NCBI GenBank assembly: GCA_963720545.1
Contig: OY970399.1
Span: 3,136,001 to 3,200,000 of the forward strand
Reading direction: 5' to 3'
Origin: an uncultured Acidobacteriota bacterium
GTDB taxonomy: Bacteria; Acidobacteriota; Vicinamibacteria; Fen-336
Length of the DNA stretch: 64,000 nt
In this document: piece after piece, positions 25,901 through 28,900 of the stretch
Numbering within the stretch: the first letter of the stretch is position 1
Layout of the letters: the number at the start of each line of letters is the position of its first letter
Made by a program: the position numbers

Positions 25901-28900
25901 CGGTGTCGGTGTCCGCCATCGACGCGGCGCTTGGCGCACGCGTGGACGCGCCCACCCCCGACGGCCCGCTGACGATCGAGATTCCCGCCGGTACGCAGAA
26001 CGCGCAGCGCTTCCGCCTGCGCAAGCGCGGCCTGCCGCGGCCCGGCGACGACGCCCGCGACGACCTGTTCGTCGAGGTGCGGGTGCAGGTGCCGCGGGTC
26101 GTGGACGACCGCTGCCGTGCGCTGCTCGAAGAATTCCGCCGGTTGAACGAGGAGTAGCTTCGATGGCAAGGCGACGGCGATCGGCACGGCCGGGCGAGGA
26201 GGCGCCGAACGCGCCGCAGACTGGCGGCAAGTACTTCATGATCAGCGTGGTCTCCAGCCGCTATGACATCCATCCGCAGACGCTGCGCCTCTACGAGCGC
26301 GAGGGCCTGCTGCGCCCGTCGCGCACCGAAGGCAACACCCGGCTCTATTCCGAGGACGACCTCAAGCAGCTGGAGCTGATCCTCAACCTGACGCGCGAAC
26401 TGGGCGTCAACATCGCGGGCGTCGAGATCGTCCTCAACATGCGCCGCAAGATGGAAGAGATGCAGCGCGAGATGAACGAGTTCGTGCAGGTGGTCGAAGG
26501 CGAACTGCGGCGTCCCGACCAGGACGGCTGGCGCGAGCGCTTCGAACAGGCGCTCGTCAAGCTGCCGCCGGGGCCCATCGTGCGCACGCCCGGCCGCACA
26601 GACGAATAGAATCGTTTCATCATGGCTATGGCGTCGCGCCCGCGGGCCCGCAAGGCCCGTGCGGGTTCGAAGGAATCGCGCGATGCCGGCCGCGGCGCCG
26701 CCATCGGCGACAGCCTCGCTGCCTACATGCGCGAGATCGCCAAGTTCGAGCCGCTGCCAAGCGACGAAGAGAAAAGCCTCGGCAGGAAGATCCAGGCGGG
26801 CGACGAAGCCGCGCTCAACAAGCTCGTCGAATCGAACCTGCGCTTCGTCGTCTCCTATGCGAAGCGCTACCGGGGCCTGGGCCTCTCGTTCCTCGACCTG
26901 ATCCACGAGGGCAACCTCGGGCTCATCGAGGCGGCGAAGCGCTTCGACCCGGAACGCAACGTGCGCTTCATTTCCTACGCCGTCTGGTGGGTCCGCCAGG
27001 CGATCTTCCACGGCCTCGCCGAGCACAGCCGCATGTTCCGCCTGCCGGAGAAGGTCTCGGGCCAGGTGTCGAAGGTGGGTTCGGTGCGTGACCGGCTGGC
27101 CGCGGAGCTGGAGCGCCAGCCGACCAACGAGGAAGTGGCGAAGGAGGCGGAGCTCACCGAGGCCGACGTCGAGAGGCTGCTGCGCGTGGCGGGCGAGGGG
27201 TTGTCGCTGTCCACCGAGGTGGGCGAGGACGGCAATATGGAGCTTGGCGACCTGATCGAACAGGACACCATCCCGCCGATCGAGATCGAGATGATCCGCG
27301 ACTCGTTCACCCGCCAGATCAAGCAGCTGCTCGAGGTGCTGGACGACAAGGAACGCGAGGTCATGCGCATGCGCTTCGGCCTCGACGGCGAAGACCCGCG
27401 GAACCTGCGCGAGATCGGCGAGTTGCTGGGCCTGTCGCGGGAACGCGTCCGCCAGATCGAAAGCAAGGCGAAGGAGAAGTTGCGCCGCAACGAAACGACC
27501 AAGGGCCTGCGCGGCTACCTGACATAAGCTCATGACCCCCATGTGCGAGGACTGCGGCGGCACCGGCTTCGTCTACGTCGAGCGCAACGGCGTGACCTTC
27601 GCGCAGCCGTGCACCTGCCGGGCGCGCGTGCCGGTGAGCGGCGAGGACGCGTTCCTGAAGCTGACCCGCATCCCGCCGCGCTACCAGCACTGTTCGTTCG
27701 CCAACTTCGAGGCGTTCACCGCGCCGCTCGCCTCGGCGCTCGAGAAGTGCCTGCTGTACTGCTCCGGCTACCCGCACAGCGGCGTCACCGACCAGGGGCT
27801 CGGCCTGCTGATGAGCGGCGACAACGGCGTCGGCAAGACCCACCTGGCGGTGGCGGTGCTGCGCGAGCTGATGCAGAACAGCGGCGCCCGCGGCCAGTTC
27901 TGGGACTTCCACGCGCTGCTGCGCGAGATCCGCAACTCGTACAACCCCGAGACCCGCACCACCGAGCTGCAGGTGCTCGAGCCGGTGGTGGAGGCCGACA
28001 TCCTGCTGCTCGACGACCTCGGCGCGTGGCGCATGACCGACTGGATGGTGGACACGCTCTTCTACATCCTCAACAGTCGCTACATGGCGAAGCGGCCGAC
28101 GCTCATCACCACCAACTTCCAGGACGTCACCGCCGAGGAAGCCGCGCGCAAGGACCCCAACGAGCGCAAGGAGTTCCTGGTGGAGCGCGTCGGCCAGCGG
28201 GTGCGCTCGCGCATCATGGAGATGTGCCTCGTCATCAGGATGAACGGCCAGGACTACCGGCAGGTGCGGCAGACGTCGAACCAGGAGCTGCTGCTGCGGC
28301 GGTCGTGACACCCGACGCCGGATCCGGCCTCGGCCTGTACGTTCACGTCCCGTTCTGCGAAGTGAAGTGCAGCTACTGCCACTTCGCCATCGACCCTGGG
28401 CTGCCCTCGGGCGCGCGGCAGGAGCGCTACGCCGATGCCGTGCTGCTCGAGATGCAGCGGCGCGCTGCCACAGCGCCGCCGCCGCGAGACGGCGCGGCCG
28501 ACACCTTGTATTTCGGCGGCGGGACGCCGTCGCTCCTCGGCGCTCCGCACCTCGGCGCGATGGTGCAGCGGGCCCGCGACCTGTTCGCACTTCGGCCCTC
28601 GGCCGAGGTCACGATCGAAGCCAACCCCAGGGATCTCGACGATGCCGGCTATGCGGCGCTGCGCGCCGCCGGCGCCACCCGCCTCAGCATCGGACTGCAG
28701 CACTTCGATCCCGAGGTGCTGCGCGCGATGGGCCGGGCACATACCGCCGCCGACAACGCGGCGTCGTTCGCGTCGGCACGCCGCGCCGGTTTCGACAACA
28801 TCTCGATAGACCTCATCCTCGGCTGGCCAGGCGAGACCGAGGCGCGCTGGCGGCACACGCTCGAGAGCGCCCTGTCCCTGGCACCCGAGCACGTGAGCCT

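Follow-up and report, generated by a model that had tools for sequence, protein, structure and literature searches.

A resident DnaC-type ATPase, putatively a DnaB loader, is kept together with DciA in many Acidobacteriota

The locus described here raises the question of whether a chromosome can keep a resident DnaC-type helicase loader together with dciA, which encodes an unrelated loader. Brezellec (2016) stated that dciA and a resident dnaC or dnaI exclude each other, with both present in none of 1,426 genomes. A 2023 publication restated this rule, as did one in 2026, which gave as the reason a binding site on DnaB common to both. In the window, which is the whole 64,000-nucleotide stretch of an uncultured Acidobacteriota genome that was analysed, a DnaC-type ATPase gene is located between a sigma70-family gene and hemW, and the same genome carries dciA (Table 1). 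We consider it likely that a chromosomal DnaC-type helicase loader was already present in the ancestor of the Acidobacteriota, at the end of a dnaK-dnaJ-hspR-sigma70 operon. The ATPase probably loads the replicative helicase in most Acidobacteriota.

Table 1. Features of the ATPase locus (window positions) and dciA of the same genome (contig positions)
Feature	Position	Strand	Basis
TTGACA-N7-ACTCAA element, head of operon	25056..25074	+	one window match
DnaJ-family chaperone, first operon gene here	25099..26157	+	TIGR02349 297 bits, cut-off 377
HspR-like MerR-family repressor	26163..26609	+	NF047375 100.8 bits, cut-off 105
Sigma70-family factor (regions 1.2, 2, 3, 4), directly upstream of ATPase	26622..27527	+	profile matches
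DnaC-type AAA+ ATPase, putative DnaB loader, 258 aa	27532..28308	+	ORF, motifs, profiles, model
N-terminal part of ATPase, residues 1-64	27532..27723	+	invariant cysteines, model, predicted complex
AAA+ domain of ATPase	27724..28305	+	alignment to E. coli DnaC positions
hemW	28305..29468	+	TIGR00539 above cut-off
dciA, 154 aa	C1:3864265-3864729		PF05258 40-41 bits, cut-off 24

A preliminary description had reported a gene with a Zn-finger and an AAA+ (PF01695) domain, and this gene is real: the open reading frame, C5xxC8, C27xC29, the Walker A sequence GDNGVGKTH, LLDDLG, TTN and the Arg finger are all present. PF01695 matched the protein with 45 bits, above the cut-off, and DnaA gave the only other match above the cut-off in the genome. 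The N-terminal part was modelled as a four-cysteine zinc knuckle with a beta-hairpin (strands 13-18 and 21-26), a helix and an IPxRY motif, and C5, C8, C27 and C29 are invariant in 71 aligned rows. This part differs from both the E. coli helical domain and DnaI_N; the layout of a zinc knuckle plus AAA+ was also found in four IMG/VR copies. Alignment to the E. coli DnaC positions given in PMC8213410 indicated K102 as Walker A, D161-D162 as Walker B, N195 as sensor I, R223 as the Arg coupler, R227 as the Arg finger and R243 as sensor II, with R134, Y137, T169 and W171 as putative equivalents of the ssDNA contacts. The five DnaC ATPase motifs (Walker A Lys, Walker B acid, sensor I Asn, Arg finger, sensor II Arg) were found in 76-77 of 77 proteins from outside the Holophagaceae. 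The Arg coupler (equivalent to E. coli R216), which is said to be absent from IstB (PMC8213410), is R in 56 of these 77. Among the ssDNA-contact columns of E. coli K143, F146, S177 and Y179, the first is mostly Q (51 proteins; R or K in 22, and R in the query), and the others hold Y/F in 72, T/S in 75 and W/F/Y in all 77.

The gene was found in 295 of 300 near-complete Acidobacteriota genomes from 89 families, intact in 273 and degenerate in 22; five genomes (G025, G054, G276, G284 and G294, 91-97% complete) gave no match with three queries. A single match was observed in 256 of the 273, so the gene is mostly single-copy, and its phylum-wide occurrence, claimed earlier from a smaller sample, was reproduced with similar shares. 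Vertical descent, also proposed before, agreed with our tree comparison, in which the ATPase and DnaB trees had 21 of 77 splits in common and 2000 shuffles gave three at most. In one tree, 96 host and 4 viral rows formed a clade with an SH value of 92, with Holophagaceae unplaced; a second tree gave the clade an SH-aLRT of 81, with G018, G262 and Holophagaceae outside. We regard the deep support for a single Acidobacteriota clade as moderate. With a divergent member as query, 8 of the 120 listed matches carried an organism name, and all were Acidobacteriota but one Anaerolinea protein of 460 aa. The Atlas clusters of the family consist of Acidobacteriota/Aminicenantota, except one mixed with phages. 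The presence in nearly all genomes and the congruence with DnaB support the reading of a resident, vertically inherited, phylum-wide gene of the DnaC/DnaI type. The Acidobacteriota case is absent from the seven dna[CI] domestications listed by Brezellec (2016), as the preliminary description had noted, and it may be a separate domestication or have a common origin with the dnaC of Aquificae. In the literature on acidobacterial helicase loaders and dciA/dnaC co-occurrence, we found no description of an acidobacterial dnaC-type loader kept with dciA, and a search that included essential-gene and Tn-seq studies returned no biochemical or genetic data on the acidobacterial loader.

Four bases lie between the stop of the sigma70 gene (27525-27527) and the ATPase start, and the ATPase TGA overlaps the GTG start of hemW. 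The housekeeping run dnaJ-hspR-sigma70-ATPase-hemW proposed earlier was recovered by profile matches to the neighbours, of which HemW was above the cut-off and DnaJ and HspR were below. Fifty-six of 81 ATPase loci adjoin dnaK, dnaJ, hspR, sigma70 or hemW, and 25, including those of Acidobacteriaceae, are without these neighbours within the stretch fetched; Acidobacteriaceae have a second recurring housekeeping context around the gene. A heat-shock operon is an unusual setting for a helicase loader. The operon begins with an element in which a -35-like hexamer is merged with an HspR-operator-like inverted repeat. The element resembles the HAIR consensus, which in its perfect form gave no genome match at up to one mismatch. 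The variant TTGACA-N7-ACTCAA has one match in the window, a count reached in 2 of 100 shuffles, and it was found in 19 of 437 loci, 16 of which are ATPase loci where it precedes the gene in the same orientation; these statistics are post hoc, because the variant was derived from the loci after the search with the perfect consensus. We found no literature on HspR/HAIR in acidobacteria.

The dciA gene pointed out in the preliminary description was confirmed by its PF05258 match and by its model, which has a KH-like domain and a C-terminal helix hairpin and gave the DciA structures 7YKM and 8A3V as best Foldseek matches. This DciA is full-length. A first count over the 300 genomes gave both genes in 169, the ATPase only in 104, DciA without an intact ATPase in 26 and neither in 1, and a renewed search of all 105 DciA-negative genomes added three more DciA. 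Both genes were therefore counted in 169-172 genomes (~57%), from 57 of the 89 families, including 20 of 25 Acidobacteriaceae. With the Pfam and a phylum-specific profile, applied to 49 or fewer candidates per genome, dciA went undetected in 101 of the 300 genomes (31 of the 89 families), all of them ATPase-bearing; the apparently missing DciA may be diverged DciA, given the low scores of the Holophagaceae protein (below). In one genome (G196) the DciA negative was false, with part of the gene reading N. The earlier claim of a domestication without loss of dciA thus stands for about 57% of the genomes and fails for these 101. In the sense of Brezellec (2016), a resident dna[CI] displaces dciA on its arrival, and here most genomes in the sample have kept both, which breaks the exclusivity rule as had been argued. 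For about one third of Acidobacteriota genomes, those without detectable DciA, the ATPase is the probable loader. The sequences show that the gene is resident and vertically inherited, that its loader-type ATPase motifs and ssDNA-contact motifs are intact, and that it has long been maintained alongside a full-length DciA.

The degenerate copies belong to the Holophagaceae, in which a diverged, catalytically decayed ATPase was observed in 22 of 22 genomes, and DciA (16-26 bits with the phylum-specific profile) was kept in all 22. The decayed copy occupies the same operon slot, with sigma70 upstream in five of five loci checked and the whole dnaK-dnaJ-hspR-sigma70 run in four of the five. This state is that of one family, whose relatives are not independent. 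The Holophagaceae pseudo-ATPase was not mentioned in the preliminary description. A lack of the ATPase gene in family f39 was considered and rejected, as a diverged copy was found.

Residues 1-64 of the ATPase are the predicted DnaB-binding part. Their predicted complex with two DnaB(150-446) scored 0.62, and the best of three controls scored 0.00; runs agreed in at least 47% of contacts, with a partner pLDDT of at least 52. Of 157 solved pairs 116 attain the mark for such scores, as do 2 of 215 mismatched ones, a calibration that is only rough here (own alignments, zinc), and the pass may come from likeness because DnaB-loader complexes have been solved (6QEL, 4M4W). In the model, the zinc hairpin sits on the C-terminal beta-hairpin of DnaB and not among the LH-DH residues used by DciA, and such separate sites could explain the coexistence of the ATPase and DciA; F13/A24 of the ATPase and DnaB 430/432 belong to the predicted site. 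Mutual information over 71 paired ATPase/DnaB rows was not notably raised at the contacts in the model (mean Z 0.39). Marsin (2021) reported Ser in DciA-type and Gly/Ala/Asn in DnaC-type DnaB at a determinant residue, a rule defined in Gammaproteobacteria. The corresponding column (E. coli G299) was variable in all three groups among 81 DnaB, which makes it uninformative here.

By analogy with DnaC, the zinc-knuckle hairpin would bind DnaB at its C-terminal face, the AAA+ domains would assemble on ssDNA into an ATP-bound oligomer that delivers the ring, and hydrolysis would then release it. The four phage copies of the ATPase lie on contigs that gave no DnaB_C match (0 of 4), one of them a complete temperate phage, as expected of a protein that recruits host DnaB. 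The ATPase and DciA would overlap in function, and lineages could thereby have been sorted into three states: those with both genes, those with the ATPase alone and those with DciA plus a decayed ATPase. We tentatively propose a stable two-loader system, in which DciA would act on LH-DH and the zinc-knuckle DnaC on the separate C-terminal beta-hairpin of DnaB without competition, with the ATPase under heat-shock control by HspR. The phylum would then hold all stages from dciA to dnaC, a reversal among them: in the Holophagaceae, decay would have struck the ATPase, the aromatic residue at its position 13 and DnaB's hydrophobic patch together. The three natural states make it directly testable in harmless cultured soil bacteria why dciA is counter-selected.

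Other explanations differ in what they make of the two genes. It is possible, if somewhat unlikely, that DciA loads DnaB at oriC, whereas the ATPase, induced by stress and controlled by HspR, serves as the loader for PriA-linked fork restart and took over initiation where dciA is gone. The operon with the heat-shock genes, the HAIR-like element at its head and the full-length DciA fit such a division of labour, as do the presence of PriA and the lack of any DnaD/DnaB_2 co-loader found in the genome; the GC skew is nearly flat and uninformative on the replication mode. HspR control is a prediction from a putative operator, however, and the 25 loci without heat-shock neighbours include those of Acidobacteriaceae, most of which have both genes. 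We think it unlikely that, in all lineages but Holophagaceae, loading is done by the ATPase alone, with DciA/DUF721 doing something else or decaying, so that the exclusivity rule would be true in function and not in gene content. DciA has indeed a mean column identity of 28%, against 35-44% for the ATPase and 50% for DnaB, 17 of 27 aligned DciA are short and without the C-terminal hairpin, 15 changes are required on the DnaB tree to account for the absence of DciA, and four of four DciA-negative Acidobacteriaceae checked have no dciA at its usual place upstream of gatC, where the control has it. However, an open dciA frame kept along with the ATPase in ~57% of genomes and 57 families is long for a useless gene, short DciA are common elsewhere, and in V. 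cholerae ~60% loading was obtained with the KH domain alone.

An initiator-clade ATPase with another client, such as an Hda-like DnaA regulator or a chaperone-linked or ZapE-like protein, appears improbable. The heat-shock context would suit it, one database names a family member ZapE, and the decayed copy kept in Holophagaceae suggests a role without ATP turnover; but E. coli DnaC with a K-to-R change in Walker A still loads like the wild type (PMC8213410), so this copy need not imply another client. Moreover, the Hda and ZapE models gave only 22 and 27 bits, loaders ranked first by sequence and by fold, and the ATPase and DciA complement each other, with only one genome of 300 having neither. 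Least credible is that the gene belongs to a mobile element, as an istB or a prophage dnaC, and merely looks resident. PF01695 and PHROG 50 membership would allow it, and four phage copies nest within host clades of the tree, but it is already contradicted by the 295 genomes with a mostly single copy in a housekeeping context, by the congruence with DnaB and by a native GC3 (0.985, against 0.87-0.91 in the four neighbours). IstA, the IS21 transposase (NF033546), was not found in the genome (94.8% complete), and the earlier statement that this is not an IS or prophage gene was upheld. Among the genes upstream of the four phage copies, none matched an initiator in PHROG or Pfam.

Among known systems, a profile of the family scored Aquifex DnaC at 181 bits, DnaI/DnaC at 97-109, IstB at 69-72 and DnaA at 33-35, and Foldseek ranked loaders first for the ATPase model; none of the NCBIfam DnaC and DnaI models reached its cut-off. 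Aquifex aeolicus DnaC (3ECC/3EC2; Mott et al. 2008, as cited in PMC4887207) is the best solved sequence match (E 1.5e-24 with the single sequence) and the best fold match (TM 0.86 of target), and it has the motifs RY...GL.F.G.PGVGKTHL, LDDLG..R..DW, TTNY and EM in common with the ATPase. Its crystal construct is without the N-terminus, so that the comparison covers the AAA+ part; unlike Acidobacteriota, Aquificae are listed among the phyla with dnaC that do not also maintain dciA. All ATPase motifs, the Arg coupler and the ssDNA-contact residues of E. coli DnaC (NF005931, 50 bits, cut-off 357; 6QEL/6QEM) align with the ATPase. However, E. coli DnaC binds LH-DH by an N-terminal helix where the ATPase has its zinc knuckle, it falls outside the Acidobacteriota clade, and E. 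coli, our search control, has no dciA. Compared with DnaI of Bacillus/Geobacillus (NF006505, 78 bits, cut-off 228; 2W58, 4M4W), the ATPase has a shorter N-terminus, to which DnaI_N is a weak look-alike (0.75), and the DnaB_2/DnaD partner was not found in this genome. IstB of IS21 (NF038214, 59 bits, cut-off 200) has the same Pfam domain; the ATPase differs from it in the Arg coupler, the zinc knuckle and the lack of a detected IstA. PHROG 50 gave 178.8 bits, and described phage DnaC-like loaders, such as ORF013 of phage 77 (PMC4887207), are ~28% identical to the ATPase, which is chromosomal and vertically inherited. In Vibrionaceae, the phage-derived loader VdhL2 was reported together with dciA in three genomes (PMC11087808); as described there, it is not of the AAA+ DnaC type and is recent and rare, whereas the acidobacterial case spans 57 families.

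The putative loader ATPase is encoded in a tight gene run, the coordinates of which are collected in the table. It scored above the PF01695 cut-off of the Pfam profile and matched PHROG 50, "DnaC-like helicase loader", with 178.8 bits, and none of the NCBIfam models reached its cut-off, the best being PRK08116 (143 vs 189 required). The source genome has one further PF01695 match above the cut-off, which is DnaA, and no IS21 transposase was found in it. The gene has a GC3 of 0.985, and its nearest named genome records belong to Vicinamibacteria/Acidobacteriota, with 66-68% identity. 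The same genome harbors PriA and a single full-length dnaB, and showed no match to DnaB_2/DnaD.

Coordinates of the ATPase operon (positions in the window) and of the phage-borne copies (positions on each phage locus)
Feature	Position	Strand	Remark
TTGACA-N7-ACTCAA element	25056-25074		upstream of dnaJ; pattern match, also found in 2/100 shuffles
dnaJ	25099-26157	+	tight gene run with ATPase
hspR	26163-26609	+	tight gene run with ATPase
sigma70	26622-27527	+	directly before ATPase in the run
ATPase ORF	27532-28308	+	258 aa
hemW	28305-29468	+	start overlaps ATPase stop
Phage copy L444	4127-4996
Phage copy L446	8102-8851
Phage copy L447	7749-8585
Phage copy L448	8585-9325

Of 437 loci, 19 matched the TTGACA-N7-ACTCAA pattern, and in 16 of the 19 the element lies upstream of the ATPase on the same strand; it was drawn from these very loci, many of which are too short to include the promoter. 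The element resembles the HspR operator, and we regard it as a candidate site. A CIRCE-like inverted repeat, with two mismatches to the consensus, lies at G000:C1:1045934 in the source genome, whose GC skew is nearly flat. Between two genes of the window, at 23942-24185, are two tandem repeats that overlap (87 bp x 2.0 and 75 bp x 1.9). Pfam also identified topoisomerase VI subunits A (32333-33508, minus strand) and B (34464-36230, minus strand), separated by a gene on the opposite strand that is presumably cysteine-synthase-like.

In the AlphaFold model of the ATPase (pLDDT 86.7), the AAA+ fold is preceded by an N-terminal knuckle whose CxxC and CxC motifs flank a beta-hairpin. Foldseek placed Aquifex DnaC, DnaI-type and E. 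coli DnaC structures on top and IstB after them. The 71-row family profile gave 181 bits for 3ECC, the Aquifex DnaC (PMC4887207), 97-109 for DnaI/DnaC, 69-72 for IstB, 67 for the S. aureus-type loader 5HE8 and 33-35 for DnaA. Motifs were counted in 77 non-Holophagaceae proteins at the E. coli DnaC positions reported in PMC8213410. The Walker A lysine and the Walker B D/E were kept in all 77, the sensor I asparagine, Arg finger, sensor II arginine and each zinc cysteine in 76, and the Arg coupler in 56. The equivalents of the ssDNA contacts were likewise kept (F146 as Y/F in 72, S177 as T/S in 75, Y179 as an aromatic in 77), and the K143 column was mostly Q. Judged by these motifs, the ATPase is DnaC/DnaI-type, and by cut-off it is neither E. 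coli DnaC nor Bacillus DnaI. The protein quite probably works like a DnaC/DnaI loader.

Among 300 Acidobacteriota genomes of at least 90% completeness, the source genome apart, the ATPase query (E 1e-8) matched 273, with a single match in 256 of these. A single family (f39), the named relatives of which are Holophaga, Mesoterricola and Holophagaceae, accounts for 22 of the 27 genomes without a match, and the family profile recovered one copy of a diverged form in each of the 22. The gene is thus present in 295 of the 300 genomes and in all 89 families; the remaining five (91-97% complete) gave no match. One or more of dnaK, dnaJ, hspR, sigma70 and hemW was found near the gene (about 4 kb upstream and 3 kb downstream) in 56 of 81 loci, about one per family, and the f39 copy occupies the same slot (sigma70 upstream in 5/5 checked, dnaK-dnaJ-hspR-sigma70 in 4/5). 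Of 80 named loci, a set weighted towards Acidobacteriaceae, 23 had hspR and 25-29 a second, recurring context; from its motifs we take it to be a Dus-like and an L31-like gene.

FastTree trees of the ATPase and DnaB (80 genomes) had 21 of 77 splits in common, compared with a maximum of 3 in 2000 label shuffles, and their patristic distances were correlated (Spearman 0.60; 0.50 without f39). Once 33 viral rows were included together with E. coli DnaC, DnaA and IstB, 96 host and 4 viral rows formed one clade (SH 92), with the Holophagaceae outside on a long branch. IQ-TREE gave this clade a support of 81 (76 rows), and two more genomes, G018 and G262, fell outside as well. Therefore, the deep monophyly of the phylum's ATPase is moderately supported by these sequence trees. 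Six loci titled Clostridia, Eubacteriales or Acidimicrobiia (L103, L121, L128, L132, L135, L157) have an ATPase within Acidobacteriota clades and are probably mislabelled assemblies.

The preliminary description placed dciA correctly in the source genome: the protein, of 154 aa, scores above the PF05258 cut-off, and its model (KH-like domain, linker and helix hairpin; pLDDT 85) best matches the DciA structures 7YKM and 8A3V. PF05258 matched 195 of the 300 genomes; 169 have both proteins, 104 the ATPase only, 26 DciA without an intact ATPase (22 of these Holophagaceae) and one neither. These counts take in three genomes flagged as unpublished (G023, G048, G145), all with both genes; without them, both occur in 166/297. 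The two proteins are found together in 57 of 89 families. No DciA was found in 31, closed genomes among them, by a search that may miss diverged forms; a phylum-specific profile run on all 105 PF05258-negative genomes added three matches, one weak. On the DnaB tree, DciA absence requires 15 changes. The dciA gene of Acidobacteriaceae is located upstream of a gene we take to be gatC, and this slot lacked DciA in 4/4 DciA-negative genomes and held it in the control. Loss of dciA, a feature of published domestications, does not characterize this ATPase family.

DciA occurs in a short form with the KH-like domain only (17 of 27 aligned) and a long one that ends in a helix hairpin (L037-L066); G161 has two matches and G242 three. 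In a comparison of this one gene, DnaB is somewhat more diverged in genomes without detectable DciA (mean identity 0.449 vs 0.483). The dciA-dnaB distance is 9-14 kb in the clade of G108, G032, G084, G015, G131 and G120. The dnaB matches of L250 (G058), L380 (G049) and L399 (G257) end at about residue 385-393 in ORFs of 875-893 aa, which probably contain inteins.

In the Holophagaceae the ATPase has decayed, which counts as one event because they are a single lineage. Their copies (L416-L437), single in 22/22 genomes, carry an insertion some 45 aa long. The Walker A motif is GRS in 21 of 22, only G153 having GKT; the sensor I TxN is missing in all 20 with a readable strand, and the five aligned copies have lost the Arg finger and sensor II along with two ssDNA contacts. 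The knuckle is retained (regex match in 20/22). DciA is present in all 22, and DnaB has diverged furthest in this family (mean identity 0.35 vs 0.45-0.48).

Four Acidobacteria appear in the table of Brezellec (2016): all of them have one or more PF01695 proteins, dciA is present in three, and in the two with exactly one PF01695 protein, it is most likely this ATPase. The exclusivity of dciA and dna[CI] is restated in PMC9912922 and PMC13696075, the latter having searched RefSeq by protein name. Members of the family are named "ATP-binding protein" in RefSeq and "DNA replication protein DnaC" in IMG. PMC11087808 describes dciA and vdhL2 together in three genomes of Vibrionaceae. Many members already carry the automatic name DnaC. 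The literature searched, with few subscription papers within reach, held no account of a resident phylum-wide ATPase beside DciA. The novel points are phylum-wide residency, a long coexistence with DciA, a sorting of genomes into three states (both; ATPase only; DciA with a decayed ATPase) and, as a candidate from modelling, a second DnaB site.

This candidate site comes from a complex of ATPase residues 1-64 with zinc and two DnaB(150-446), modelled with its own paired alignments. It scored 0.62 (runs 0.62, 0.60, 0.64), and the best of three controls 0.00; the calibration mark, here valid only roughly, was reached by 116/157 solved complexes and 2/215 mismatched pairs. Contacts agreed between runs in at least 47%, with a partner pLDDT of at least 52. 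The model, to which solved DnaB-loader complexes may have lent likeness, supports binding of ATPase 1-64 to DnaB. ATPase residues 10-30 are predicted to contact 190, 192, 406-410, 430-435 and 439-444 of one DnaB subunit (E. coli 210-212, 428-432, 452-467); these include no residue of LH (~160-181) or DH (~270-285), the elements used by DciA, although these may touch as well. ATPase position 13 is aromatic in 68/71 and position 24 is A/V in 63/71, whereas position 13 is aromatic in only 3/20 Holophagaceae. In DnaB, positions 430 and 432 both carry a small/hydrophobic residue in 56 of 75 rows from outside the Holophagaceae (two gapped rows left out) and in 0/4 Holophagaceae; E. coli has T/N, Geobacillus helicases A/I and 2Q6T Q/H. 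Mutual information between ATPase and DnaB rows did not confirm the predicted contacts.

Four IMG/VR copies of the ATPase were nested within host clades in the tree, and host-to-phage transfer is the simpler reading. One of their contigs is rated 100% complete, with integrase, terminase, portal and capsid genes. DnaB_C had no match on any of the four, which fits a protein recruiting the host DnaB, as described for phage 77 ORF013 (PMC4887207). The phage copy in G304 has a processivity-factor (clamp-like) gene and a RecE-like gene in its vicinity.
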